Source: an uncultured bacterium
GTDB lineage: Bacteria; Hydrothermota; UBA3072
Assembly: GCA_964556365.1 (NCBI GenBank)
Contig: CAZKVT010000001.1
Location: forward strand, 7,158-71,157
DNA: 64,000 nt
Direction: 5' to 3'
How positions within the stretch are numbered: the first letter of the stretch is position 1; each line of letters begins with the position of its first letter. The notes under the pieces were generated by a model. That model saw only the letters and a list, made by a program, of their open reading frames with translations. It was not told where the DNA came from and did not search any database. The position numbers and the translations under genes are program-made. Below, piece after piece: positions 4,843 through 30,560 of this stretch.

Positions 4843-6369
4843 TTGGAATCAAATAAACATAATTTAAGTAAGCCTTTCTTAGAAAGTGAAAATCTAACCT
4901 TATTTTTACATATCGCTATTCTCTGTTCGCTTACAATCTTAATCCGCGTTTTTTTTCTTTTTCATAACTCGTTCGCCGTAGGTTTCGACGGTTACTATTA
5001 TGCCCTGCAGGTTCGCGCACTAAAGGAAACAGGGCAATTATTGATCGCGGATAATTCACTTGTTTTCCAAATCTTGCGATTCTTCGCGATATTTTCAAGA
5101 GATGTCGTATTCAGCAATAAAATTGCAGCTCTCTTATTCGGCGCTTTAAACGCAATTATCCTATACCTTTTACTAATAAGATTGAATATAAATAAATGGA
5201 TTGCTTTCCTATGTGGAATATTATTTCTCTCTTCCTATACTCAAAATTTTCTGGGTTTCGAACTGCAAAAAAACAACATCAGTATGAGTTTTTTTCTGTT
5301 TTTTATGCTTTTTTTAAGCATTAGCCTCGATAATAAAAAATATTTTAAATATACCTTTTTGTTTTTTATATTAACTCTACTTACACATAAATTGATGGGA
5401 GCGTTAGCTATACTTTTTCTAATTATTTATTTTATAATAATATTGATATTTAACCAGAACTTACGTAAAAAAATTACGGCTAATAGGAAACTCCTTCTAC
5501 TTACTTGCAGTTCTTTTTTAATAATTATTATCATTACAATCTTTCTATCTCCTCTACGATTAGTGGACTTAAAAAATTTTCTAAGTTCTTTTACTCTGTA
5601 CAGCGGAATCGTAGACAGATTTAAGAAAATCATTTTTATAAGAAATATTGGAACCAAGATAGAACTAATTTTATTGCATGTTATACCGTTTTTATTTATT
5701 CCGTTTTTAAGAGCTTTCCTTAAAAACCCTGAAATTCGAAAACAGCAAAAATATTTTTTAACTGCTCTCCTGTTTTTTTCTTTCATATTAATATTCCCTT
5801 TTCTTAAATTCGACTGGGATTTCATAGCTTTTCGATTCTTAATTATAAATACGGTTCCTTGCTGTATATTTATCGGCTCTATTGTTTCAATTTCAAAAAA
5901 GAGGCTTAAAAAGACTTCACAAATATTTTTGATTATAACATCGATACTTCTTATGAGCCAAATACCTTCCCAAATTAAAACTTTTCATACAAGAAGATAT
6001 CCCAATTACAGTAACTTATATTCATCTATGCTAAAGGTTAAGGATTATGTTCCCGCGGATAAAAAAATCATCGCGCATAAGGGACTAAGTTCATTTATCT
6101 GGTATATTACCGGAATAGAAGGAACTCATTTCACGCCGGTTGAAAATTTAGATGAATATTATAGAATTGTATATGGTTTTGGCATTATCCACTTTGAACC
6201 TTATCTGGCTTCAGGAGAATACGAAAAACCTGTCGAGATAAAAATGCCTTATTTCTTAGTTGAAGAGCGCCTATGGCAAAATTTTTATAATGATAAGAAA
6301 GATAAAGTAGATTTTTTAAAAGAATGGGTAAATCCCAGTCAACCCAGACCCGCCCATGTATATCATTAA
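4843..6369 (+). CDS. polytopic integral membrane protein, possibly GT-C-fold glycosyltransferase (ArnT/PMT-like)
   Basis: There are more than 10 predicted hydrophobic helices followed by a soluble C-terminal region of about 120 aa. The start is TTG and there is no in-frame ATG before the first helix. The function call is weak, resting on architecture only. Confidence 0.35.
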   Translation: MESNKHNLSKPFLESENLTLFLHIAILCSLTILIRVFFLFHNSFAVGFDGYYYALQVRALKETGQLLIADNSLVFQILRFFAIFSRDVVFSNKIAALLFGALNAIILYLLLIRLNINKWIAFLCGILFLSSYTQNFLGFELQKNNISMSFFLFFMLFLSISLDNKKYFKYTFLFFILTLLTHKLMGALAILFLIIYFIIILIFNQNLRKKITANRKLLLLTCSSFLIIIIITIFLSPLRLVDLKNFLSSFTLYSGIVDRFKKIIFIRNIGTKIELILLHVIPFLFIPFLRAFLKNPEIRKQQKYFLTALLFFSFILIFPFLKFDWDFIAFRFLIINTVPCCIFIGSIVSISKKRLKKTSQIFLIITSILLMSQIPSQIKTFHTRRYPNYSNLYSSMLKVKDYVPADKKIIAHKGLSSFIWYITGIEGTHFTPVENLDEYYRIVYGFGIIHFEPYLASGEYEKPVEIKMPYFLVEERLWQNFYNDKKDKVDFLKEWVNPSQPRPAHVYH

Positions 6370-6422
6370 TATAAATTAAATGGATTTAAAGTGTTAAAAA
6401 AACAGTAAAAGGTGGTAAAAAA

Positions 6423-7841
6423 ATGAAAAAAATCGGAACCTTTCTAATTCTTTTTCTGGTCTTAAATCTCGAATCTATAGCACAGGAAAAGACTATCAGA
6501 AACTCTATCGATACACCTAATGGCTATGTCAGGATAAATTTCCCTGAAGGGTCTTACAGTAACTGGATTCAAAACCTTCCTTTAAAAGAAAACTCGATAA
6601 TTCTGGAATATAGGGGTTATATGATTAGCCTTGATTATTTCTATAATGTTTTCGCGGTCGTAGATATGCCTCTCTTATTTAAATCGGACTTGGAACAATG
6701 CGCGGACTATTGCCTCAGATTCTGGGCGGAATACCACAAAGACATGAATAAATTAGACTCTCTCTATCTATTCGATTATAGCGGAAACAAGAAGAAATTT
6801 ACAGGCAGCGGAAAAACTTACTCCGGGTTTTTAAAGTGGGCTTTTTCATATTCGAATTCTTACTCTTTAAAAAAAGGCTGTGAGAAAGTAAGTGTCGACG
6901 AACTAATACCCGGCGATATGATAGTTCAAAACGAAGGCGGAGGAATAGGTCACGCTTCCGTAATACTGGATGTTTGCAAGTCTAGTGAAGGTAAAAAGTT
7001 GTATTTAATCGGTTATAGTTATATGCCCGCGCAAGAACTCCATATAGAAAAAGCAGCCGGCTCAAGAGGTACTGAGGGCTGGTTTGCTATCGAAGGATAC
7101 TTTAATTATTTGTCAGATTATATTCCTCTCGGAGAACCTACCTTAAGAAGATTCGAACCTACTTTTTCTATTGAAGAAAGTTCGAGTGCTATCGATAAAT
7201 GGGATAATTTTGAAAAAGCGGTAAGAAATCAGACAATTTCAAAAGATTCCGCTAAAAAAGTATTTCCTTCTCTACATGCAGAACTGAAAAATTATGCGGA
7301 AAAATACAAATTTGATACCTTAATAACTTCATGGGCTTTTCCCGTCGATGGATACGGCATGGACGCACTCGGAAAAGGGGGATTTAAACCGGATATTTAT
7401 TACGGGGGTTCGACCATAAAAGGATACGATTTTTACGATGGAAACAAACACGGAGGACATCCCGCTTACGACATTTTTATTCTTGATAAAAATCAGGATT
7501 GTGTGGATGATAACGACGGAAAACCGGTCAATATCGCCGCGCCTGTCGATTTAATGATACTTTCGATTTTTAAAGCCTGGGTAAAAGGTTCGGGAATAAG
7601 AGGAGGAAATTACGTCTGGGCTCTGGACCCGTACGATAATCAAATATTTTATTTCGCGCACATGGATTCTATTTTTGTCGAAGGAGGAGATTTTTGTAAC
7701 AAGGGTACACCTATCGGCACAATGGGAAGGAGCGGCAAGAATGCCTGGGTAAAACGATGCCCAACACATTTACACATGATGATTTTAAAAATCGAGGGCA
7801 ATGAACTCACCCCCCTCGATTACCTTCAAATGTTGGAATAA
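6423..7841 (+). CDS. secreted DUF4846-like domain fused to M23 (LytM-type) metallopeptidase
   Basis: A signal peptide is present. The N-terminal half has NGYVRINFPEGSYSNWIQNLPLK and DLEQCADYCLRFWAEYH, which I recall as DUF4846-like. The C-terminal half has HPAYDIF (HxxxD) and CPTHLHMMI (HxH), the M23 zinc ligands. Confidence 0.7.
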   Translation: MKKIGTFLILFLVLNLESIAQEKTIRNSIDTPNGYVRINFPEGSYSNWIQNLPLKENSIILEYRGYMISLDYFYNVFAVVDMPLLFKSDLEQCADYCLRFWAEYHKDMNKLDSLYLFDYSGNKKKFTGSGKTYSGFLKWAFSYSNSYSLKKGCEKVSVDELIPGDMIVQNEGGGIGHASVILDVCKSSEGKKLYLIGYSYMPAQELHIEKAAGSRGTEGWFAIEGYFNYLSDYIPLGEPTLRRFEPTFSIEESSSAIDKWDNFEKAVRNQTISKDSAKKVFPSLHAELKNYAEKYKFDTLITSWAFPVDGYGMDALGKGGFKPDIYYGGSTIKGYDFYDGNKHGGHPAYDIFILDKNQDCVDDNDGKPVNIAAPVDLMILSIFKAWVKGSGIRGGNYVWALDPYDNQIFYFAHMDSIFVEGGDFCNKGTPIGTMGRSGKNAWVKRCPTHLHMMILKIEGNELTPLDYLQMLE

Positions 7842-7908: not shown

Positions 7909-10900
7909 ATGGTTTTAATAAAAATGGATAGAATTTACTTAAAAAAGTGTTTAATACTATTTATCTTTTCGTTATCTTTTTCTTTAAATATTTATGCTAA
8001 GTTAAGTGACAATAAAGTTAAATCTTTGATTCAACAATTTGCCATCACTGACAGGTACGACGAGAACTACAGAGAACGCGAAGAAATCATTAAAGAGTTG
8101 CTTAACTCAGAAAATTCCCAAATAATAAATTTCCTTATAGACGCTCTGTACAATGATAATTCTAGCATACAATATGGTGCAATTTTGACTTTAAAAAAAC
8201 TCAGAGATCCACGGTCTATAGAGCCTTTGGGAAAAATATTATTAGATAAAAACCTTGGCAGAAAATTGGTTGATAATGAGGGATGGCTTAGAAACTATGT
8301 ATTAGAGATTCTCGAGAACATTGAAAATTCCCTCGTAATTGAGTATCTGATACAATCTCTTAAGTTAGAACGTGGAGGTATACAATCTCGATCCATAGAA
8401 ATCTTGGGTAAAAGACAAGATAAAAGAGCTATAAAACCTTTACTTTTTATATCTAAAGATACATTAACCGAGACATCTCTTAGAGTAAAAGCAATTAATT
8501 CTCTTGGAAAAATAGGAGACTCAATAGTAGTAAATCCTTTAATTGATATACTGGAAGAAAAACCAGATTCTGAAATCCGTTCAGCTATATTTCATACAAT
8601 ATGTAGTTTTCCGAATAAGAAGATGGTTCCTACGTTAATTAAAGAATTAAAAATAGGGACCCGTTCCACTAAATGGAGTGCCGCAAAAACATTAGGGGAA
8701 ATAGGAGATACTTCTGCGGTAATGCATTTAATCGACTTAATAAATGACAAAGACGTGAGATTCAGAGCGACCGAAGCACTGGGCAAAATAGGAGATAAGC
8801 GTGCCGTAGAGCCCTTACTTTCAATCTTAGAGACAAAACCTCCCTGCAGCACCTTCACCGCAATTGAAGCTTTAGGCGAAATAGGAGATACTTCAAGTAT
8901 TGACGCCCTCGCGGATATTTACATGAATACTCCTACATCAGAATGCCCTATACTATTTTTTCGTTATGCGGCAGCTAATGCTTTAGCTAAAACAAACAGT
9001 ATAAGAGCCGCGCGTATAATAATTGAAGGGTTTCAACAGATTGAAGACAAGGGAAGGTTAGATTACAACGATATAAGGAGAATACTAAGGGAGTCAACAC
9101 CCCAATCTGTAGGAACTCTAATAAAAATACTACGTACAGAAAATAGAAAATATAAGGATTGGGTATCAGAAGCTTTAGCAAGACTCGGTTCCAAATCGGT
9201 CGATTCTCTTCTTACAACCATCAATCATGACAACCCTAACGTACGAAAATATTCTGTTAGAACGCTCAAAGAAATAGGAGACCCAAAAGCTATTGTTCCT
9301 TTAATTGCAGCTTTACGAAAAGAACAAAATGGCGAAGTTAGAAGAGGAATATCAAAGGCGCTCGGATGTCTGGGGCGTAACAATAAAACAGCTCTTGATT
9401 CTTTACTTACTCTGCTAGAAGATAAAGATTTTGTTTTACGCCGGGAGGCTGCGTTTGCTTTAATGATACCAGAAGACAAAAGAGCTATAGACCCTTTAAT
9501 TTTAGCACTAAATGATGATGACTTTGGCGTAAGAATCGCCGCGGTACGGTCTTTAACAAGAATAGGAGTTGAGCCTGAAGTCTTAATAAAAGCCTTAAAG
9601 AATGAATGTACGATTGTGAGGTGGATAGCAGCGTATGTAATCGGAGAAAAAAAATACACTACTGCTATAAAACCTTTGATTGAATGCATGAGGGAAGAGC
9701 CTAAGAATGACAAAGAAGAGACAGAAAAAATATTAAAAGATTTAAATATCGATTTATATTCCCAAGAAGATTATTGCAGCCCTTCTCACATACGTTCAAG
9801 GTTTTGCGGATATGGTAGATCCGTTAGACTCAAAGACGACCCTAAAGATGGTCAATTCGCCGCTATCTGCGTACTCGGTGAGTTAAAAGCAAAAGAAGCG
9901 GTTAAACCTTTAATAAAAGCTTTAAAGCACGAAAAAGATTATATTAGAGAAGCAGCAGCATGGTCTTTAGGAGAAATCAAGGATAAACGGGCAACTAAGC
10001 CCCTTATCGAGGCTTTGAGAGACAGTGATGAAATGGTTCGTTCTCGCGCTCATTGGGCATTAGTGGATATTGAGGATGAGAAAGCAATAGATCCTTTAAT
10101 TCTCCTATTAAAAAACGAAAGACCCGAGGTCAGAGAAGAAGCGATAGATGCTTTACACTGGTTTGAAGATAGCAGAATAATAAAACCTTTAAAATATGCC
10201 TTGAAAGATGAAGACGAGGGAGTACAGTCGGCAGCAGCAAAAGCATTAATTTATAAAGGAGAAAGTTTATTTGTTACGCAGTTTCTTCAAAAAGATAAAG
10301 AAGAGAATAAAGAAATAAAAGATGAAACTACATTACCTCTTAAATTTACAAAAAAGTCTCAATCAATTGAAGATCTAGTAAATCTTCTGGGAGCAAAAAA
10401 TTCCAGGACTCGAAGTAAAGCTTTTTCAGCCCTGAAAGGTTTTGATAAAAAAGAAGTCGCAAAATTTTTGATAATTGCTCTGGTAGAGCATGACGAGACC
10501 GGCAGAGAAACAGCTTTCTATTTATTGAATGATTTAGGATTAAACACTGCCAAAAATTTTATTTCGGAAGATTTTAGAGATTATCTACTGAATATAAAAT
10601 TAACAAATAAAAATATGTCAGCGGAAGAAAAATGCGGTTATATTTTAATGGAAGCGGCAATAAGCGAAAAGGAAAAAGTAAGAGAAAATGCCTTAGAAGT
10701 AATAAAACGTTTCAATAATTCTGCTGTAAATAAAAATTTTGTTGAATTCTTGATAGGTCGACTTAAAGATGATTCTCCTGAAGTTAGATCTACAATTGCT
10801 TACGCACTGGGTGAATCCAGGAACCCGAAGGCGGTAGGTCCTTTAATTAATTTACTTAAAGATGAAGACGAGAGTGTTTGTAGATCAGCTGTTGGTGCTC

Positions 10901-11901: not shown

Positions 11902-14340
11902 TCAATACACCTCTATACTTATAGCTTGACTTTTACAATCGGTATAAGGGACTGCTGCCTCAAGGACATACTTTCCCGGCTTCATGGGCAAATTAAGAGC
12001 GTACGGATATTCAGAAACCTTAAACTCCCGTTCATTTACAAACCATAACACTTCTTTAGAACTCGGCACCACGTTACAATTAATGGTTATAACCGCTTCA
12101 TCCTCTGGCATCTCTGGGTCTATGTAGAATCGGGAATTGGCGTTGGGATAAGTTATTTCAACTTCATAATCCTCGGGTTTCTTTTCATAACCGTCTACAG
12201 GACTATACTCAATAGGTGTAGTATTAAGTCCCTGAGAAGCAGCCCAATCTTTAAAAATCGGATCCAGAACGACAAATTTTTTATAAACAACATATTTTTT
12301 CGGACAACCCGGAGGAGCGAGCAAATTATTTCTTTTATCGATTGCGATAATTTTGACAACATCACTGTATTCGGTGGGTTCTGTACCGGGTTTAAAATAA
12401 TCCAGTGAAACATAAGGAGTATTCCTATCCGCCAGCCTGCCTGTCAAACGGCAAATCGGAACCTGTACATAATCTCGAGGCGGAGGGAATTCCCTGTCAT
12501 CTAAGCCTTCTTTTCTCTCAGGATGAAGTAACCCGAAAATCTTTTTAACGATAGGCGCCGCGTGAGCGTAACCGCTTACCTGTTTCATAGACAAATTGTC
12601 GTGATGTCCCACCCAAACACCTACGAGATACCTGTCAGACCAGCCGATAGTCCAGGCATCCCGGTATCCCTGTGAAGTACCCGTTTTCACGGCAACAGGA
12701 TAAGGATATTCCAAATATCCCAACCTCGGAAAGGTCGGCAATCTGGCTAATGGGTCGGATAAGAATCTCTGTATTTGTTTTGCTATATCAGACCTCATAA
12801 GCCTGGTTCTTTTGTAACTCATATCCGGGTCCGCGACCCAGCTTAGCTTCGTCTTCTTTCCTTCGTTAGCAAGAACCAGATAGGACTCGCATACCTGACT
12901 GAGACTGGTGTAAAGACCTCCGATAGCGAGACCGAGTCCGTAATATAGAGGGTCGTTTTCACCCGGAGCAAGACCTAAACCAACAAAATATTTGTATGTT
13001 CGCTCCACACCTAAATCTTTAATAACATGAATAGAGGGAATGTTGCGACTGTTGGCAAGCGCTGTTTTATACAGCACAGGTCCCATAAATTCCTTGTCAT
13101 AATTTTCAGGAATAAAAGTATTTCGTCCCTCTCCGAAATCATGCCCTATATCTCTAAGTACGGTAGAGGCGGTATATCCAAGCCACTCCATACCAAGAGC
13201 AAAAAGAAAAGGTTTTAATGAACTACCCGTTGAACGCGGTACTCTCGCGTAATCTATCGAACCCGCGTTGCTACGATCGTAATAGTTCTCTGAACCCAAA
13301 TAAGAAAGTATTTCGCCTGTTTCCTTCCTAATTACCATTACAGCCACATTCGAAGCTCCGGCTTTTCTTAAATCCGAAATCCTGCCGTCGATAATATCCT
13401 GAACTTCTTCCTGCAATTTTAAATCTACACTGGTCCTAATAGTGTTATTAAGATTGCTAACCATGTGTTCTTCATATTTTTTTTCATCACGGAAATATTC
13501 CGTCATAGCTAAAACGGCATGAATGGTAGAACTGATGCGTAATTCCCTGGGAGGTAAGTAGAAGTCCTCTACTTCTCTCTTAGCCTGTCTCCAATCTTCT
13601 TTTGAAATCCAATTATATTGAAAGGCTCTATTTATGATAATTTCAGCCCTCAATTTTGCCGCGTCCATACCGTAGGTTCTGCAAATGTTCATCTCTCCGG
13701 GAGCCTTAGGTAACGCGGCCAGCAAAGACGCTTCCGCCAAACTAAGGTCATTCAAAGGCTTTTGAAAATAACGCCTGCTCGCGTAATTAGCTCCGAATAT
13801 CTCGTTTCCGTAAGGAGCAATTTTTAAGTATTGACGCAGTACCTTCTCGCGACCATATAACAACGTAATCTCGATCGCGGTAAAACTTTCTTTAATTTTG
13901 AAATACCAGTTCCTTGAGTGGGGAGCCTGCAAGCGAGCAACCTGCATAGCAATCGTAGAAGCTCCGGAAAAATCTTTCCGAACTACATAATTATTCCATA
14001 ATGCTCTAATTACAGAAAAGCCATCGATACCTAAGTGAAAATAGAATCTCTGGTCCTCAGCCGCCAGAGTCATCTTTTCCAATCCCGGCGGAATTGAATC
14101 AGGCAGTGGCCAGAAGCCAAAATTCCCATCTTTATTCTCTACAGAAGCTAAAAATTCCATATTCCTTTCTAAAAACAGTAAAGAGGGTTCAGGAGTTACC
14201 AGACGACAGCAGAAAAGGCTGTGCAAAAAGGCAATAGATACAAACAAAACAGGAATTAAAAAAAGAAATCTTAAATAAGGCTTGAAATCTTCAAAAGATT
14301 TAAACTTTTGTCTAACTATTACAATTACTTTCTGTATCAA
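11902..14340 (-). CDS. pbpC: penicillin-binding protein 1C (bifunctional GT51 transglycosylase / transpeptidase)
   Basis: The GT51 motif EDQRFYFHLGIDGFSVIRA is present. The transpeptidase motifs are STGSSLKPF (SxxK) and KTGTS, followed by a C-terminal beta-rich PBP1C-type domain. The gene lies directly downstream of an alpha-2-macroglobulin gene, as in E. coli yfhM-pbpC. The start is TTG. Confidence 0.85.
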   Translation of the reverse strand: MIQKVIVIVRQKFKSFEDFKPYLRFLFLIPVLFVSIAFLHSLFCCRLVTPEPSLLFLERNMEFLASVENKDGNFGFWPLPDSIPPGLEKMTLAAEDQRFYFHLGIDGFSVIRALWNNYVVRKDFSGASTIAMQVARLQAPHSRNWYFKIKESFTAIEITLLYGREKVLRQYLKIAPYGNEIFGANYASRRYFQKPLNDLSLAEASLLAALPKAPGEMNICRTYGMDAAKLRAEIIINRAFQYNWISKEDWRQAKREVEDFYLPPRELRISSTIHAVLAMTEYFRDEKKYEEHMVSNLNNTIRTSVDLKLQEEVQDIIDGRISDLRKAGASNVAVMVIRKETGEILSYLGSENYYDRSNAGSIDYARVPRSTGSSLKPFLFALGMEWLGYTASTVLRDIGHDFGEGRNTFIPENYDKEFMGPVLYKTALANSRNIPSIHVIKDLGVERTYKYFVGLGLAPGENDPLYYGLGLAIGGLYTSLSQVCESYLVLANEGKKTKLSWVADPDMSYKRTRLMRSDIAKQIQRFLSDPLARLPTFPRLGYLEYPYPVAVKTGTSQGYRDAWTIGWSDRYLVGVWVGHHDNLSMKQVSGYAHAAPIVKKIFGLLHPERKEGLDDREFPPPRDYVQVPICRLTGRLADRNTPYVSLDYFKPGTEPTEYSDVVKIIAIDKRNNLLAPPGCPKKYVVYKKFVVLDPIFKDWAASQGLNTTPIEYSPVDGYEKKPEDYEVEITYPNANSRFYIDPEMPEDEAVITINCNVVPSSKEVLWFVNEREFKVSEYPYALNLPMKPGKYVLEAAVPYTDCKSQAISIEVY

Positions 14341-14354
14341 TTTTAAATGATTTT

Positions 14355-17300
14355 TTATTTTTCTTGTTTTATTACTATTTCAGCTCCGGGACTATTACCG
14401 TTCACGCTCAAATCATACATCATTTCAGCTCTAGCCGGGGGATGGGTAAAATCTCCTTCTATCGTCGCTCTCAGACGAAAATAAAAATCATAAGTGCCAG
14501 CCGGCAAATAATCGAAATAATAGACAACTTTATCATCCAAAAATTGCTGATAATCTACTTTATCGGTAGTTCTCCCGGAAGGATTAGCATCGGCAGAAGA
14601 AGTTTCCAGATTTGGATTAAGGGGTTCGAATCCCGCGGCAAACGGCGCCGAAACAGCAACAAAATGTTGGTCTTTGGGATTTACAACCTGTATATGCTCC
14701 TCGATTATATCCCCTATCTTAAGATTATGCACGGTTTCCGCCTTCTCGAGCATATTCTTTTTATCAGGAGCATCAGTTTTGGAAACATAAATCAATTCTC
14801 TTTTTACCACAAAACCGTGCTGCTCGGCAGAAACAGCGCTGCCCAATTTTTCCGGCAAATAACTCTGAGTGTACTCCACGTAAAATTCTTCATCCCTGGA
14901 TTTAGATTTTAAACTAACATTACCGGCTTCTTTGCTTTTTAGTTCTGCCTGCAGGGCTCCTTTTCTTCCGTCGAATTTTATACGCTCGGAAGAACTTCCG
15001 TCTTTAAGGTCAAACTCCGCGGTAAGACTTCTTTTCTTTCCTTCCTGCATATAATCGCGCAGCGAAAGTAAAGCGTTACTATTAACATTTGTATTTCCCC
15101 ATCCGTCCACACTGCCGAGAGTAACAAGTTCATCCACCATCATCTCGACTTTTTCCGGAGACTTCCCGGATAAAGAAAAAGCGCTTATCAAACCGCTTAA
15201 ATTCTTTATTTCTGAAGCGTGAACCTGCGCTCCTATTCTCATGTTCCTCTGCTGCAGACCTCCGAAGACTTCTTCTCCTTCTTTAAGTTTGAATATAGTT
15301 TCTTTCCATAATTCTTTTTCCAGATTCTTAGAGGCGAGACCCAATCTGAAATCACCGGTTAAAATAGCTTTATATATTCTCGATTGACTTAACAAATCGA
15401 CCTGTTTCGTCTGGGAAGCAAGTTCACGCAGGTAACCAACGTCTGCCTCTCCCGCCATACCTAAAGCGTGTATCGCGGCACAGCGCTCGTAATATCTATA
15501 TCCCGATAAAAATTGAGAATAGTCCGAACGAAGAGATCTTTTAAGAACGTTAATCGCTCTATCTAACATTTCTTCATCAAGATGATATCCGGCGCCGGAT
15601 TTCTTAACCGTAAGAAGAAACTCGGTAATATAAGCGGTTAAATAGACGCGACCATTACTCCCGGGCCAGTAGCCGAATAAACCGCTGGGGTGCTGGGCTT
15701 TTTTAAGGAATTCCAGAGTTTTATTAACATAATCCTTTAAATGGGGATCGGGAGTCTCGAGCCCCAATTCTCCCCAGATATCATCGTAAGCCAGGGCGGG
15801 ATAAGCGTAACTGACCTTTTGCTCTGTACATCCGTGAGGATAATGCATCAGGTATGACAAGGCTGAAAGAACTTTAAGTATAGCCAATTTATCACTAACG
15901 ATTAAGTCTCTATGAAAAGTGTTTTTTCTTGGGGTATCATTTAAGGTTTTCCAGTAAAATGCCGAATCCACTTTAACAATTCCGAAAGTATCGTATACAA
16001 TGGGTTCTCTATCCAATAGAAGCGGAATTTTTATCTGGAAAGCATCACCGGCTTTGTCATAACTGCGCTGCAGGGCAATCTTAAATGAAACGGAATCTAT
16101 AAGCAAATCACCCTTTTCATCATAACCGGGAGCACTGGCCTCCATGTCAGCATACAGAGGTAAAGCTTCCTTAGAAGGCAGAGTGATTGTTCCTTTTTCC
16201 TTCCCCTTTAATATATCTACACCCTTTGTTTCAATCGAATATATTGCCTTTCCTCCCTCCCCTTCAACAACGCGGGCTATTCCTCCGGCTTTAAATTTAT
16301 CTCCTATTCTAATGAATCTCGGAAGAGCCGGCTGAACAATAACCGGTAGGCGCACGGCAACTTTTGATTTCTGAGAACCGAAACGAGACACTCCGGAAAC
16401 CGCTACCGCCCGAACAGCAAAATTAGTAAGATTATCGGGCATTTTAATTTTAACCGTCGCCTTACCGGAAGAATTGACGAGTATTCTCGGATTGTAATAC
16501 GGAACTGTTTTAAAGGTTTTCCTTACCGTTATTTTACCCAACCCCTCGAATTCCTCTTCTTCCTCGTAGTAACCGTCCCCCGCGGGCGACTCTCCTAATC
16601 TCAAATCTCCTATAGCAAGATTACGGGAATCTCTGACACTTACATACGATTCCACTGGATCGATAAAAGCCTCCAACGGATCTATATTTTTTTCTTTCTT
16701 TAAAGCGAAAATAGCGTCGTCTACAAGCCAGAGAGTTACTTCTCCGCTTAAAGGTTTACCTTTATTATCTTTTAAACTTATCTCCATATCCATCTCATTG
16801 CCGGGCAAAACAACTTTCTCATGCTCTAAATCGACATAAACCCTGTTGGAAGTGGGTTCTATTTTCAACCAGGTAGTGTTCGCGACAGCTTCAGGCTTCC
16901 CCAGATCGACTTTCTGCCCTTCGGGAAGAACTTTAGGCGGAGCAATACGGGAACGTATTAGCAAAAAGCTGACCGGCAACAGAGGAACCATCTCGGGAAG
17001 GATTTTAACCTGGAGAGTCGCTTTGCCACCTGAAATATCGACCCATTTATACTCAGGTCTCTCATCCGGCATCTCTATTACGGATAGCGCTCGAGCATTT
17101 TGGTAAGGACTTTTAATAAGAATAGTCGCCACATCCCCCGCTTCGTAAGAATCTTTATCCGGCACTGTTTCAAAAATCATCTGTTTTGGTTTTTGCCATG
17201 CCATGGGTTTGTCTCCAGCTACGAATAAATCTACTTTTACTGTCTGCAAACGCCCCAGTTTATCTTTAGCATTGAGTTCCAGTATATAAACACCTGCGGA

Positions 17301-25752: not shown

Positions 25753-25780
25753 TTGACTCCGATATTTAAATGTCTATAAT
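25753..25780 (+). promoter_or_regulatory. sigma70-type promoter (TTGACT-16-TATAAT) upstream of the SGNH/TPR gene
   Basis: TTGACT is at 25753-25758 and TATAAT at 25775-25780. It is preceded by CCCC, like other promoters in this window. Confidence 0.5.
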
Positions 25781-25839: not shown

Positions 25840-28083
25840 ATGGAGAAAAATATTAATAAGTCGAACTCCTCTCCCGAAATAAGTTTCGGAAAGCGTATAC
25901 TTTTTAGCCTGCTGCTGCTCTTGATCGCGCTAAGCGCTCTATTGCTCGTGGAAGGAATTCTTCGGTTCTGTAACTACGGAGGAGATTTAAGTTTATTCGT
26001 CTCCGCTCCGGAAGAAATCTCGGATTACTACCGTTGTAATCCTGATATAGGAAAGCGCTATTTCTATGAACAGTTTACCATACCGGACCCACCAAAGGAT
26101 CTATTCCTGAAGAAAAAACCGGAAAACGGGTATAGGATTTTTGTACTCGGTGGATCGACTACTGCCGGCTTCCCATACGGAAATAACCTGATGTTTTCCC
26201 GAATTCTATGGCGGAGACTTCAGGATACGTTCCCGGAGAAGCGAATTGAGGTCGTGAACACAGCCATGGCTGCAGTAAATAGCTACACCATACTTGACTT
26301 CATCGATGAAATACTTGAATATGAACCCGATCTCATACTCATTTACATGGGACATAACGAATTCTATGGGGCACTCGGAGTTGCCTCATTAGAATCGATC
26401 GGACAGAGTAGGGCAATTATTAAACTCTATTTAAAAATGCAACACCTGCGGTTATTCCGTCTATTGCGAACACTAATCAGTAAGGTAAAGACGATATTAG
26501 AGCGAAATCACGCTGACAATCCGGAGGATCCGACGGCGACTCTAATGGAGCGAATTGTTTCAGAACAGGTTATTCCCCTGGGAAGCGAATTATACGAACG
26601 GGGAAAAGAACAATTTCGAACTAACCTTGAGGAAATCTTGCGGATAGCAGATAAAGCGGACGTACCGGTCGTGTTGAGCGAGCTGGTAAGTAATGTGGGA
26701 GAACAAACCCCGTTTCATTCGGTACAATCAGACACTTTTCCTCCGGCAAATCAAGTGTATAAGCAGGCAAAAGAGCTAGAAGAGCGGGGAGATTACGACA
26801 AAGCCGGACAACTGTATTTCTGGGCAAAAGATCTGGATGCCCTTCGATTTCGGGCAACCGAAGATTTTAACAACATAATCTACGAATCGGCTTCCAAATA
26901 CAAAATCACAGTAGTACCAATGAAAAATATTTTTGAAAAGCACTCTTCACATGGCATCATTGGAAAGGAGCTAATACTCGAACACCTTCATCCTAACGTT
27001 GACGGCAATTTTCTTATGGCAGACGGGTTTTATAGAACAATTAGGGCAAAAGGCTATATCGGCTCGAAGTGGAATTCGAACCACATCCAAAATGCTTCTG
27101 TGTACAAAAGAGATTGGGGAATGACTCCCCTAGACACGGTATACGGCAATCTGAGTATTCGCTGGCTTAAGGGAGGTTGGCCATTTCAGCCTAAAGAGTT
27201 CCAAAATACGAGTCTTGAAACCTATACCCCGAAGAATAAGGTGGATTCGGTGGCACTTAAAGTATTGGTGGATAAAGAAATCGGTGTAGAAGCGGGTCAT
27301 CTTACCCTGGCTCAATATTACCGAAACCATAAAGAATACCATAAGGCTTACCATGAATACAGAGCGCTTATATATACAATACCCCACGAGGTCATGTTCT
27401 ACGAAGGTGCCGCGCAAATGCTGCTCAAGTTGGACAAGGATGAGGAGGCCCTTTCAATTTTAAACGAATCATTGCGGATCATAAAAAACGACTTTGCTAT
27501 CAAGCACCTTGCGCGCATGTATCTGCAGCAGGGAGATGTTAACAAAGCCCTATCCTATTGCGCGAAAGCGGATCCGTCCCTTACAAAGGATCAGGATTTC
27601 CTGAACACTCTTGCGCATGCCTATATCGCCTCCGGACAATTAGACAGATTTCGAAAAGTCTTGGAACATCTGCACTCCCGTAAATCCGGATCACTCCAGC
27701 CGTTTCCGTATCATATTTCAGCAGGGACGCAACAGATAGCACAAATATACAATTCCGCTTCCACTGTTTTTTTAAAGGAACGGGATTTCCGCACTGCCTT
27801 CTTGTTATTAAACCAATCCCTGAATATAGAGGAAACAGCATTCGCAAATAAGTGGATTGGTCAGATATTGATTGTTCAAAAGCAATTTCGACAGTCGCTG
27901 CCCTATTTGCTAAAAGCCGAAGCCATGGGATTGAAGGATTCGGATTTATACTACAATCTGGCAGCAGCAAGCTATTATCTGGACAAAAAAGAAGAAACGA
28001 TTCGTTATTTAAACAAGCTAAAACAAATTAATCCAGATCATCCCGACCCCTCCGGCTTACTGAACAAATTATATCTGGATTGA
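25840..28083 (+). CDS. membrane-anchored SGNH/GDSL-type hydrolase fused to TPR repeats
   Basis: An N-terminal TM helix is present. SGNH block I is IFVLGGSTTAGFPYGNN and block V-like is LEHLHPNVDGNFLMA. The C-terminal half has TPR-like repeats of about 34 aa. Confidence 0.7.
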   Translation: MEKNINKSNSSPEISFGKRILFSLLLLLIALSALLLVEGILRFCNYGGDLSLFVSAPEEISDYYRCNPDIGKRYFYEQFTIPDPPKDLFLKKKPENGYRIFVLGGSTTAGFPYGNNLMFSRILWRRLQDTFPEKRIEVVNTAMAAVNSYTILDFIDEILEYEPDLILIYMGHNEFYGALGVASLESIGQSRAIIKLYLKMQHLRLFRLLRTLISKVKTILERNHADNPEDPTATLMERIVSEQVIPLGSELYERGKEQFRTNLEEILRIADKADVPVVLSELVSNVGEQTPFHSVQSDTFPPANQVYKQAKELEERGDYDKAGQLYFWAKDLDALRFRATEDFNNIIYESASKYKITVVPMKNIFEKHSSHGIIGKELILEHLHPNVDGNFLMADGFYRTIRAKGYIGSKWNSNHIQNASVYKRDWGMTPLDTVYGNLSIRWLKGGWPFQPKEFQNTSLETYTPKNKVDSVALKVLVDKEIGVEAGHLTLAQYYRNHKEYHKAYHEYRALIYTIPHEVMFYEGAAQMLLKLDKDEEALSILNESLRIIKNDFAIKHLARMYLQQGDVNKALSYCAKADPSLTKDQDFLNTLAHAYIASGQLDRFRKVLEHLHSRKSGSLQPFPYHISAGTQQIAQIYNSASTVFLKERDFRTAFLLLNQSLNIEETAFANKWIGQILIVQKQFRQSLPYLLKAEAMGLKDSDLYYNLAAASYYLDKKEETIRYLNKLKQINPDHPDPSGLLNKLYLD

Positions 28084-28091
28084 GTAGATCG

Positions 28092-30341
28092 ATGTATATT
28101 CTTGGAATTTCAGCTTTTTATCACGACAGTGCCGCCTCTCTGATTAGGGATGGGAACATTATTGCGGCGGCACAGGAAGAACGATTTACCCGCCTCAAAC
28201 ACGATTATCGATTTCCGACCCATGCAATAAATTATTGTCTACAAGAGGAAAATATTTCCCCATCGGATCTCGAATATATCGCGTTTTACGACAAACCGTT
28301 CCTAAAATTTGAAAGAATTCTCGAATCGTATTTGCAATATGCTCCGATAGGAATCAGTTCTTTTATAAAAGCCATACCCGTCTGGATAAAAAAGAAAATC
28401 TGGATAAAAAGCCTTATACAAGAAGAACTCCCCGGCTTCAAAGGCAAAATACTCTTTCCCGAACATCACAGATCCCATGCTGCTTCGGCATTTTTTCCGT
28501 CTCCTTTTTCTGAAGCCGCCATTGTAACCACGGACGGCGTTGGTGAATGGACAACTACCAGCATCGGTTTCGGAAAAGAAAATTCTATCAAACTACTGCA
28601 GGAACTCCAATTTCCGCATTCTCTCGGTATGTTGTACTCCACGTTCACCTACTACACCGGTTTCCGGGTAAATTCAGGAGAATATAAAGTGATGGGATTG
28701 GCACCTTACGGGAAACCAAAGTATGTTCAAACTATTCTGGACAACCTTATAGATATAAAAGAAGACGGCTCGTTTCGTCTTAACCTGGAATATTTTAACT
28801 TTCCGGTTGGACTTACTATGACTAACCGGAAATTCAACCGATTATTCGGCGGTCCTCCGCGCAAACCGGAAAGTAAGATAACGCAGAGAGAAATGGATTT
28901 AGCACGCTCTGTGCAGGAGGTAACCGAACTTATCTTAAAACGGATATGCCGCCACGCGAAAGTAGAAACAGGAGCAAAAAATTTAGTATTAGCCGGCGGA
29001 GTTGCGTTGAATTGTGTAGCTAACGGAAAATTACTGCGCGATAACGCTTTTGAAGATATCTGGGTTCAGCCGGCAGCCAGTGATGCCGGCGGAGCGCTGG
29101 GTGCAGCGCTTTCTGTCTGGTATGAATATCTGGGAAATTCACGCGCTATCGAACATGGGTATGATGCCCAGCAGGGTTCCTATCTCGGACCTCGATTCAG
29201 TAATTCGGAGATAAGGGAATTTCTGGAAAGCCATCATATTCCTTTTCACCAATTATCAGACACCGAAGTAATAAAACAAACAGCAACATTGCTGGCAGAG
29301 AAAAATGTAGTCGGCTGGTTTCAAGGGCGGATGGAATTCGGTCCGCGGGCGCTTGGGGCACGAAGCATACTCGCAGATCCTCGTTCCCCGGAGATGCAAA
29401 AGAAATTAAATTTAAAGATTAAATTTCGTGAGTCGTTCCGGCCATTCGCCCCATCCGTATTGGAAAATGCCGTAAAAAAATACTTTCAATTCGACCGGCC
29501 CAGTCCATACATGCTTTTTGTTGCCGAGGTCGCCGAGGATAAACGCCACCGGATGAGCCAAAAAGAAGAAAAATTGTTCGGGATCGATAAACTGAATATC
29601 GTACGGTCAGAAATTCCGGCAATAACTCACGTTGACTACTCCGCGCGCCTCCAAACAGTCAACGAAAATACAAATAAGAAATACTATGCCCTGTTGAAGG
29701 AATTCGGAAAACAGACGGGATGTCCCGTTCTTGTAAATACCTCCTTCAACGTACGGGGAGAACCCATTGTCTGCACCCCCCATGATGCATATAAATGTTT
29801 TATGCGAACCGAGATGGACTATCTGGTTCTCGGAAATTATCTCCTATATAAAAAAGAACAGCCTGAAACCACTCCGGGGCTCTCCTGGAAAGACGATTTT
29901 GCACTTGGTCGATTTACCCCGAAGCAACCGGCAATCATGGATACTTCGAAATTTGGAGACCGCAGGGAATGGCGGAAATTCGGGATTGGACTTTCAATCA
30001 TTCTGGCGATCCTCGGAACCATCCAATGGATAAGGGGAATTTCCCTATTTCCCATATTTTACTCGATCGCCGGGATAGTCCTTGCATCGGGCCTTCTTTT
30101 CCCGATAATTTTGAAACCATTGTTCATTTTATTCAGTTATATAGGATTCGCTTTAGGATGGGTAATGACCCGGGTTATACTCTCGGCCCTTTTCTTCCTG
30201 GTACTAACACCAATCGGTCTACTCTCGCGCCTGGTAAAAAAGCGTTATTTACAGACGGATATCGGTACAAATGAAACTACCTACTGGAAGGCACATCGGG
30301 AACAAACCGCTTCGAAAGAACATTTTGAAAAGCAGTATTAA
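28092..30341 (+). CDS. NodU/CmcH-family carbamoyltransferase fused to a C-terminal SxtJ-like membrane domain
   Basis: MYILGISAFYHDSAASLIRDGNIIAAAQEERFTRLKHD is the typical carbamoyltransferase N-terminus, so I prefer the ATG at 28092 to the tracked TTG at 28080. The last roughly 130 aa (from about nt 29950) form 3-4 TM helices (WRKFGIGLSIILAILG...LTPIGLLSRLVKKRYL), resembling SxtJ. Confidence 0.8.
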   Translation: MYILGISAFYHDSAASLIRDGNIIAAAQEERFTRLKHDYRFPTHAINYCLQEENISPSDLEYIAFYDKPFLKFERILESYLQYAPIGISSFIKAIPVWIKKKIWIKSLIQEELPGFKGKILFPEHHRSHAASAFFPSPFSEAAIVTTDGVGEWTTTSIGFGKENSIKLLQELQFPHSLGMLYSTFTYYTGFRVNSGEYKVMGLAPYGKPKYVQTILDNLIDIKEDGSFRLNLEYFNFPVGLTMTNRKFNRLFGGPPRKPESKITQREMDLARSVQEVTELILKRICRHAKVETGAKNLVLAGGVALNCVANGKLLRDNAFEDIWVQPAASDAGGALGAALSVWYEYLGNSRAIEHGYDAQQGSYLGPRFSNSEIREFLESHHIPFHQLSDTEVIKQTATLLAEKNVVGWFQGRMEFGPRALGARSILADPRSPEMQKKLNLKIKFRESFRPFAPSVLENAVKKYFQFDRPSPYMLFVAEVAEDKRHRMSQKEEKLFGIDKLNIVRSEIPAITHVDYSARLQTVNENTNKKYYALLKEFGKQTGCPVLVNTSFNVRGEPIVCTPHDAYKCFMRTEMDYLVLGNYLLYKKEQPETTPGLSWKDDFALGRFTPKQPAIMDTSKFGDRREWRKFGIGLSIILAILGTIQWIRGISLFPIFYSIAGIVLASGLLFPIILKPLFILFSYIGFALGWVMTRVILSALFFLVLTPIGLLSRLVKKRYLQTDIGTNETTYWKAHREQTASKEHFEKQY

Positions 30342-30401
30342 CAATAGGAGGCTTTTAATATATGTATTTCCAACAGAATAATAGCAAAGGAAGGTTATTC
30401 T

Positions 30402-30560
30402 ATGTCTAAAATGTCCATATTGGTTGAATTCTGGGAGTTCTTACGAGCCCGGAAAAAATGGCTTCTCGCGGTAATCGCATTCTTTCTTTTATTACTCGGC
30501 ACTTTGATTGTATTCACGGAGGGATCAGCACTGGCGCCTTTTATATATCCCCTCTTCTAA
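30402..30560 (+). CDS. 52-aa DUF5989/SxtK-like small membrane protein (absent from ORF track)
   Basis: The ATG is at 30402, preceded by AAGGAAGG, and the TAA is at 30558-30560. It translates as MSKMSILVEFWEFLRARKKWLLAVIAFFLLLLGTLIVFTEGSALAPFIYPLF. This matches my memory of the conserved small protein that follows carbamoyltransferase/SxtJ genes (..EFW.FL..RKKWWL.P......LLG.L.V...GSALAPFIY.LF). Confidence 0.75.
   Translation: MSKMSILVEFWEFLRARKKWLLAVIAFFLLLLGTLIVFTEGSALAPFIYPLF

Follow-up and report, generated by a model that had tools for sequence, protein, structure and literature searches.

In the saxitoxin gene cluster, a carbamoyltransferase (CT) gene and its partners occur in the order sxtI-sxtJ-sxtK-sxtL, where SxtL is a GDSL lipase (PMC2679770, PMC2684587) that has been proposed to cleave the carbamoyl group (PMC2885083). 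SxtJ and SxtK have been without an assigned role since the cluster was described and are still "hypothesised to work in conjunction" with the CT (bioRxiv 10.64898/2026.06.11.731795). In the gvg cluster of Pseudomonas fluorescens WH6, the CT GvgF is 55% identical to SxtI and is followed by a 47-amino-acid transmembrane open reading frame (ORF), GvgG, and the authors noted that small transmembrane ORFs often accompany CT genes (bioRxiv 10.1101/080572). Because GvgG and the esterase/lipase GvgA were both genetically required for formation of the product (bioRxiv 10.1101/080572), such CT partners are functional. Here we analyzed a locus of this kind at positions 25840 to 30560 of a 64-kb stretch of DNA (the window) from an uncultured WOR-3 bacterium (host assembly of 1.85 Mb, 78.6% complete). 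Its three co-directional ORFs, all on the plus strand, encode an SGNH hydrolase with tetratricopeptide repeats (TPR), a CT fused to an SxtJ domain, and an SxtK-like protein of the DUF5989 family. The original prediction, made from the letters of the window, had already named these ORFs and domains, and Pfam confirmed every one of the domain calls. It had overlooked that the SGNH partner parallels SxtL, that this enzyme is predicted to be periplasmic, and that the DUF5989 protein ends in an acyl-shuttle motif.

The gene association itself is already known, and the locus in the window is a fused variant of it. Comparison of gene neighborhoods indicates that a CT, SxtJ, SxtK/DUF5989, and a membrane-anchored SGNH protein form a portable set found in more than 20 bacterial phyla, and that it is the same set as sxtI-J-K-L, since the SGNH partner mirrors SxtL. 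A species scan, with one genome taken per species, detected close relatives of the CT in at least 597 species, and the loci of the best 80 of these, in more than 20 phyla, were analyzed with our own hidden Markov models (HMMs) on six-frame translations. The ranking of loci favors full coverage of the fused query and therefore biases the frequency of SxtJ upward. SxtJ was adjacent to the CT in 76 of the 80 species loci and DUF5989 in 61, and the small ORF is thus conserved beside orthologous CTs, as had been anticipated. Organisms with an unfused CT have the CT gene followed by a free-standing 134-amino-acid SxtJ gene and a 52-amino-acid DUF5989 gene. SxtJ, or SxtJ and DUF5989, lay upstream of the CT in eight loci, and four loci were without SxtJ, three of them at contig ends. 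SxtJ and SxtK are hereby placed in a portable module of hundreds of species.

A function is suggested by the C terminus of the DUF5989 protein. Its gene (30402..30560, plus strand) lies 60 nt after the CT::SxtJ gene and has a Shine-Dalgarno-like AAGGAAGG (30387..30394, plus strand), read from the sequence, 7 nt ahead of its ATG. The 52-amino-acid product is a single-pass microprotein that matches DUF5989 (PF19451) in Pfam at 69.7 bits against a cut-off of 27; its amphipathic N terminus closes with R-K-K-W and is followed by a single transmembrane helix and a short tail of 14 C-terminal residues. Because R-K-K-W precedes the single helix, the N terminus should be inside and the tail outside. 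The tail closes with the hexapeptide F-I-Y-P-L-F (30540..30557, plus strand; Tyr49 codon, 30546-30548), which is followed immediately by the stop codon and fits the pattern FxYxxF. DUF5989 peptides across phyla are 63 to 83% identical to that of the window, and the ending P-F-(I/V)-Y-x-x-F-stop was present in all 77 DUF5989 relatives of the analyzed loci. In the protein library, 1,643 clusters match DUF5989 at an E value of ≤0.001; 123 of the 150 best representatives have the same ending, and 14 of the other 27 keep the motif and then continue with unrelated sequence, which looks like read-through. FXYXXF has been described as an acyl-shuttle motif that forms the extracellular C terminus of DltX and the C terminus of bacterial MBOATs, with the version FIYANF in Neisseria PatA, and the acyl-tyrosine of the motif donates its acyl group to the serine of an SGNH enzyme anchored in the membrane (PMC12148441). 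The DUF5989 tail matches this motif of DltX and PatA, and the charge bias predicts that it, too, is located outside. Our literature search found no paper linking DltX to carbamoyltransferases and none mentioning DUF5989. Two other ideas, that DUF5989 is a substrate peptide resembling ribosomally synthesized and posttranslationally modified peptides or that it is carbamoylated on the cytoplasmic Ser2/Ser5, were set aside as unsupported. Small genes of this family are underannotated: on a JGI contig of a close WOR-3 relative (L088), the DUF5989 ORF at 8309-8464 was not called by the source annotation, is detected by our HMM at an E value of 6.5e-23, and lies near a different 41-amino-acid ORF that was called instead.

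An SGNH enzyme on a membrane anchor is encoded by the first gene (25840..28083, plus strand), as judged from Pfam, structure prediction, and column conservation. In the 747-amino-acid protein, Lipase_GDSL_2 matches residues 102 to 389 (43.5 bits; cut-off, 32.9) and several TPR families match residues 488 to 734, with TPR helices spanning approximately residues 483 to 745. The AlphaFold2 (AF2) model, with a mean predicted local distance difference test score (pLDDT) of 87.1 and a predicted template modeling score of 0.82, begins with one long helix, followed by an α/β domain and by some 16 to 18 helices that form the TPR superhelix, and a fold search of the model against PDB returned matches dominated by TPR proteins. 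A signal-anchor at about residues 20 to 38 (hydropathy window centers 22 to 37) ends in a conserved L-L-E38-x-x-L-R42. The catalytic residues are Ser106 (26155-26157), Asn173, and Glu381/His384 (His384 at 26989-26991); the serine, asparagine, and histidine are invariant across 41 SGNH/TPR sequences and position 381 is E or D, so the SGNH triad is intact. The canonical glycine of block II is absent, the corresponding stretch, assigned from the sequence pattern and an AF2 strand at residues 135 to 140, reading N140-x-A142 with alanine in 39 of the 41 sequences. PatB and OatA likewise lack the block II glycine (PMC12148441). Net charge in the 41 proteins averages +3.2 over the 15 residues before the anchor versus +0.1 after it, which, under the positive-inside rule, predicts a periplasmic location for both the SGNH domain and the TPR domain. 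The protein, which the original prediction had taken for a deacylase or acyl-shuffling enzyme, is therefore unlikely to be a simple deacylase that acts beside the CT in the cytoplasm.

The CT is encoded at 28092..29867 (plus strand), as defined by Pfam, PDB relatives, and alignment, and is of the NodU/CmcH/TobZ type of O-carbamoyltransferases. Carbam_trans_N (PF02543) and Carbam_trans_C (PF16861) match at 318.4 and 257.7 bits (cut-offs, 24 and 27), corresponding to a Kae1-like (ASKHA-like) N domain and a YrdC-like C domain. Relatives in PDB include 7xb6, decarbamoylnovobiocin carbamoyltransferase 9s2t, GdmN, and TobZ (E values of 1e-75 to 4.6e-98), and the solved chains align to the CT part alone (query residues 8 to 592). 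The GPRALGxRS motif named for such CTs (bioRxiv 10.64898/2026.06.11.731795) is present in the window as GPRALGARS. In the 35 CT sequences aligned, the invariant positions are H125, H126, H129, D148, D331, and G417-P-R-A-L-G-x-R-S425 (749-amino-acid numbering). The three histidines and two aspartates we take to be the metal ligands of TobZ. Because such an enzyme needs ATP and carbamoyl phosphate and this one is without a signal peptide, the CT is placed in the cytoplasm. Transfer by the CT would be ATP and carbamoyl phosphate dependent. A carbamoyl-phosphate synthetase gene was found in the host genome. Unfused CTs of 606 amino acids from Calditrichia, Armatimonadota, Acidobacteriota, Marinimicrobia, KSB1, and Aminicenantes are approximately 70% identical to the CT domain of the window and terminate at ...FELD, the point at which the protein of the window runs on into a linker and a membrane domain.

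This linker (29868..29960, plus strand) consists of approximately 30 residues and connects the CT domain to the first transmembrane helix, as defined by alignment, with AF2 pLDDT values below 50 at residues 601 to 614. The SxtJ domain behind it (29961..30341, plus strand; Pfam, hydropathy, and AF2) is a genuine SxtJ relative. Pfam SxtJ (PF19588) matches residues 633 to 720 of the full protein at 24.2 bits, just under the cut-off of 24.4, and the domain scanned by itself reaches 28.1 bits; the same family is matched by 66 of 69 relatives from CT loci (best E value, 1.7e-22). Free-standing 134-amino-acid SxtJ ORFs located between the CT and DUF5989 genes on Marinimicrobia and Armatimonadota contigs are 52 to 53% identical to the extension. 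Hydropathy and alignment give four hydrophobic segments, an invariant G-W-x-M-T-R turn, and a basic C-terminal tail with a conserved Y-W. Strongly basic sequences, RREWRK at the beginning and SRLVKKRYL at the end, indicate that both termini are probably inside, and the G-W-x-M-T-R turn would therefore be at the outer face; fusion to the CT likewise places the N terminus in the cytoplasm. AF2 models helices at residues 624 to 648, 653 to 669, and 671 to 714 and merges the last two segments into one helix, at moderate confidence only.

Fusion of CT and SxtJ is a rare architecture, found in 2 of the 80 species loci when fused and split forms were counted. Its origins were traced in a maximum-likelihood tree of CT domains, in which four separate fused groups were each nested among split relatives with Shimodaira-Hasegawa-like approximate likelihood ratio test (SH-aLRT) support of 84 to 100: the WOR-3 clade (97), the pair L006/P0063 (100), a Pyrinomonadaceae genome (84), and an Aegiribacteria genome (98). 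The tree thus indicates that the fusion arose independently at least four times. Long proteins with an SxtJ-like region formed 31 clusters, and all 31 were CT fusions. Because the fusions are recurrent and independent and because SxtJ is fused to a CT in every fused cluster found, the view that CT and SxtJ act together as one membrane-associated unit is well supported. This much of the original Rosetta-stone argument stands; its conclusion of membrane anchoring underreads DUF5989, given the FxYxxF ending of that protein. SxtJ-DUF5989 fusions, which would mimic the motif borne by MBOATs, were looked for in the loci and the library and none were found, and the loci without a separate DUF5989 gene contained no reading frame ending in the FxYxxF motif. 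Longer library proteins containing DUF5989 that had been candidates for such fusions proved to have miscalled starts and no SxtJ domain. The single CT::SxtJ chain may be convenient for structural work, since fusion fixes the stoichiometry and the topology of SxtJ.

We tentatively propose, with somewhat less than even confidence, that these proteins form a carbamoyl relay to an envelope polymer that would resemble Dlt and PatA/PatB and would operate without an MBOAT. The cytoplasmic CT, held at the inner face by the fused four-helix SxtJ, would make carbamoyl-AMP from ATP and carbamoyl phosphate, and the carbamoyl group would be loaded on the invariant Tyr49 of the FxYxxF tail at the outer face. 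O-Carbamoyl-tyrosine is an aryl carbamate, a class of compounds that readily carbamoylates active-site serines. The aryl carbamate on Tyr49 could then carbamoylate Ser106 of the periplasmic SGNH domain, which would hand the group to a hydroxyl or amine of the polymer, and the TPR arm might dock on the machinery for synthesis or export of that polymer. The ATP-dependent CT together with SxtJ would stand in for the MBOAT. A more general proposition holds that DUF5989/SxtK is a carbamoyl-tyrosine shuttle which, with SxtJ and a TobZ-type CT, makes up a third transmembrane loader for SGNH transferases, beside MBOAT and AT3, driven by ATP and carbamoyl-AMP and serving extracytoplasmic targets in more than 20 phyla; this we regard as possible and less likely than not.

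A number of observations weigh against the relay. Its main gap is the transit of the carbamoyl group from a cytoplasmic active site to a periplasmic tyrosine: no MBOAT or AT3 domain was found in the three proteins of the window or among the annotated recurrent neighbor families, and the alignment of SxtJ has no invariant histidine. The sidedness of SGNH, SxtJ, and DUF5989 is predicted only, and the AF2 model of the fused protein has a moderate pLDDT of 72.5. A profile search of PDB with the SGNH domain gave ordinary SGNH/GDSL esterases and lipases as the nearest solved relatives, and none of the 60 best matches was a molecule named DltD, PatB, OatA, or AlgX. The CT retains a fully conserved Kae1-like transfer domain, which argues for a first acceptor that can be reached from the cytoplasm.

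The last two points favor a different scheme, in which CT::SxtJ, with DUF5989 serving as a structural subunit, acts at the inner face and O-carbamoylates directly a membrane-embedded or exported substrate, such as a sugar on a lipid carrier, the head group of a lipid, or a molecule awaiting export, and the periplasmic SGNH/TPR protein edits the product as a carbamate or acyl esterase. Lipid aminoacylation of the MprF type combined with a periplasmic hydrolase follows the same logic. The scheme requires no unexplained transmembrane chemistry and fits the proposal that SxtL is a decarbamoylase (PMC2885083), and it also accommodates the many loci in which the CT, SxtJ, and DUF5989 genes (the trio) are without an adjacent SGNH gene. 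A minority of loci are flanked by glycan genes (epimerase, DegT, GT4, and Wzy_C, with Wzx-like, YfhO, and GT1 genes in L090), as would suit such substrates; however, the trio usually occurs alone, without flippase or glycan genes. Nor does the scheme account for an FxYxxF ending that is absolutely conserved at the C terminus outside the membrane, and in the gvg pathway the esterase/lipase GvgA, a possible SGNH enzyme, is needed for formation of the product rather than for mere turnover. We consider direct carbamoylation at the inner face rather unlikely, and the relay remains the reading that we prefer.

The relay also depends on the SGNH protein being part of the system. SGNH was the commonest neighbor family of the trio in 83 clustered loci (the window included), in a short form of approximately 330 to 450 amino acids (18 loci) or as the long SGNH/TPR form (9 loci). 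The two forms share an N-terminal membrane anchor ending in E-x-x-(L/G)-R, and anchor-type SGNH proteins recur beside the trio in at least 10 phyla and in many gene orders. In WOR-3, where SGNH, SxtJ, and DUF5989 are abbreviated L, J, and K, the order L-CT::J-K is maintained in three contigs despite differing flanks, and other lineages have split genes in the orders L-K-J-CT, K-L-CT, J-L-K-CT, L-J-CT-K, CT-K-J, and J-CT-K. A neighborhood kept despite shuffled order argues for a functional linkage of SGNH with the trio, and these comparisons identify the SGNH protein as a true fourth component of the module rather than a local oddity. The pairing is found in sxt as well and may extend to gvg. 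Co-occurrence with the SGNH/TPR gene, which the original prediction had proposed as a check, was exact in the genus of the window: of 14 other genomes sampled, 10 contain both DUF5989 and SGNH/TPR, approximately 4.5 kb apart, and the remaining 4, two of which are >90% complete, lack both. It was partial across species: 19 of the 80 loci had an SGNH relative within 3.5 kb and in the same orientation, and 30 had one in the flanks on either strand.

That only about a quarter to a third of loci have an adjacent SGNH gene counts against the relay and is one ground for supposing that the SGNH/TPR protein is an incidental neighbor, with an envelope function of its own and an operon shared in this genus, the system proper consisting of CT::SxtJ and DUF5989. 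The SGNH/TPR family is large (3,741 matches at an E value of ≤1e-5 among 8,000 scored); the three paralogues sampled at approximately 54% identity all lie far from any CT, beside genes for cargo of the type IX secretion system (T9SS), which likewise speaks against the relay; and Melioribacter sp. OK-6-Me carries two SGNH/TPR proteins on contigs other than that of its trio. Against this stand the exact match of presence and absence in the genus, the E-x-x-x-R anchor common to the short and long forms that recur by the trio in at least 10 phyla, and the same pairing in sxt, and we judge an incidental SGNH protein to be improbable.

Other members of the SGNH/TPR family were seen in several settings. 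In L091 (7209-11232), L092 (6753-11010), and L093 (7803-10938), a paralogue is directly downstream of a same-strand T9SS-cargo gene that carries CBM9 or FlgD_ig together with Por_Secre_tail. In two Ignavibacteria loci (L008, 1994-7838; L010, 2524-8243), three or four paralogues are arrayed in tandem and run in the opposite direction to the trio. Some Ignavibacteria copies have an N-terminal cytoplasmic extension of approximately 35 residues (MPLS.KQ...L.vkemAk.LNV...) before the anchor that resembles a small helix-turn-helix, and some appear to be split or truncated.

The nature of the acceptor was considered from the gene neighborhoods, and the neighbors of the operon in the window gave no clue to it. 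The original prediction had reasoned from a lack of toxin genes to carbamoylation of an envelope glycan or lipid. No toxin-pathway genes were found among the proteins of the window, as it had stated; the argument from membrane tethering to a lipid or glycan substrate is weakened, as is the relay, by the small soluble products on which the homologous modules of sxt and gvg act. The operon might in the same way tailor a soluble secondary metabolite that is then exported, as with SxtI/J/K/L or GvgF/G/A. The only members with functional evidence (gvg knockouts and predicted roles in sxt) act on small molecules, and the CT is approximately 55 to 60% identical to cyanobacterial members of the same subfamily. 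Yet no biosynthetic core, tailoring, or exporter genes were found beside the operon in the window, the operon has its own promoter-like site, and the flanks vary among close relatives. Two Microcoleus loci have the order CT-J-K-L, and in the annotated one (L079) this block is located amid housekeeping genes with no toxin-pathway domains. In addition, the identity of approximately 70% between phyla among CTs of stand-alone loci suggests a common and widespread acceptor. A dedicated small-molecule substrate seems very improbable on these grounds.

The three genes of the window appear to be transcribed together. A sigma-70-type promoter-like site, TTGACT-16-TATAAT (25753..25780, plus strand), is 60 nt upstream of gene 1; it is a consensus match only, agreeing at 11 of 12 positions, and is the best-scoring site in the region. 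The gene downstream of the DUF5989 gene is on the minus strand and converges on the operon. With this promoter-like site upstream and a convergent gene downstream, positions 25840 to 30560 look like a self-contained three-gene operon under one promoter. The longest ORF of gene 2 (28080-30341, plus strand; 753 amino acids) starts with the TTG at 28080, giving the 4-nt overlap with the SGNH gene that was originally described. Nearly all close CT::SxtJ homologues (749 amino acids) begin with MYILGISAF, which equals the ATG at 28092 in the window, and the true start is therefore probably this ATG, 8 nt past the SGNH stop codon, the overlap probably being a product of taking the longest ORF. The SGNH and CT genes are tightly coupled in either case.

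Several features point to a mobile accessory module. The CT is approximately 70% identical across phyla, the CT tree conflicts with taxonomy, occurrence is patchy (DUF5989 in 31 of 151 WOR-3 genomes), and the GC content of the operon is approximately 0.44 versus 0.37 to 0.38 in the flanks. More exactly, it is 0.438 to 0.444 within 26001-30000 versus 0.366 in the upstream and 0.382 in the downstream 2-kb bin, which would fit horizontal acquisition of such a module. The four genomes of the genus without the module have the downstream outer membrane protein gene (approximately 52% identity), and the upstream giant gene was not found in them, so that synteny is weak. The trio occurs in genomes of the candidate phyla radiation as well (L030 and L038).

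Individual loci show further arrangements. In an Armatimonadota locus (L004, 5317-11144; also L005), a CT-SxtJ-DUF5989-SGNH block separates the gamma and beta subunit genes within the operon for the F-type ATP synthase. In another WOR-3 family (L095, 3419-8450), the CT is approximately 2.6 kb from DUF5989 and SxtJ, which are in the order K-J. A close WOR-3 relative (L089, 10817-14250) has UbiA and PPDK_N/Rph-type genes 2.5 kb downstream of the module. In the annotated Microcoleus locus (L079), two paralogues of approximately 440 amino acids follow the CT-J-K-SGNH block (13886-16549), with no Pfam match and weak SGNH similarity (E value of approximately 1e-5), and a 549-amino-acid protein with a DUF1574 match is encoded upstream of it (6070-7719).

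If the relay exists, the acyl-tyrosine shuttle principle would extend past MBOAT and AT3, and carbamoylation of the envelope would count as a common modification of the cell surface that has so far escaped notice. Were DUF5989/SxtK a carbamoyl-tyrosine shuttle, two natural-product pathways would have steps, those of SxtJ/K/L and of GvgG/GvgA, that occur at the membrane or on its far side.

The described systems resemble the module in different parts. TobZ, GdmN, decarbamoylnovobiocin carbamoyltransferase, and 7xb6 have the same two-domain catalytic core, Kae1-like and YrdC-like, as the CT of the window. TobZ, GdmN, and similar soluble CTs are not known to have membrane partners and act on soluble antibiotics. 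The gvg cluster shares a CT followed by a small transmembrane ORF, plus an esterase/lipase, GvgG being possibly a DUF5989 member and GvgA possibly an SGNH enzyme; unlike the window, it makes a soluble oxyvinylglycine, and no SxtJ-like gene is mentioned for it. The sxt cluster, likened here by description, has the same four families, a CT with GPRALGxRS and then SxtJ, SxtK (DUF5989), and GDSL/SGNH, whereas in the window CT and SxtJ are one polypeptide, the SGNH gene is upstream and carries a TPR domain of approximately 260 residues, and toxin-pathway genes are lacking. Compared with Dlt (DltA/C, the MBOAT DltB, DltX, and DltD) and PatA/PatB, the window has no MBOAT or AT3 and no invariant histidine in SxtJ, and the group to be moved would be a carbamoyl, with carbamoyl-AMP presumably as its activated form in place of an acyl thioester. 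By the PDB profile search, the SGNH protein is not a sequence relative of DltD or PatB, and the comparison is one of working principle, not of family membership. In that sense the predicted anatomy of the module, a cytoplasmic activator, a membrane unit, an outward-facing FxYxxF microprotein, and an outward-facing SGNH enzyme, matches the logic of Dlt and PatA/PatB, where FxYxxF likewise ends a single-pass microprotein or a C-terminal tail on the outer side and is combined with an SGNH enzyme on an N-terminal membrane anchor, as predicted for the SGNH/TPR protein of the window.

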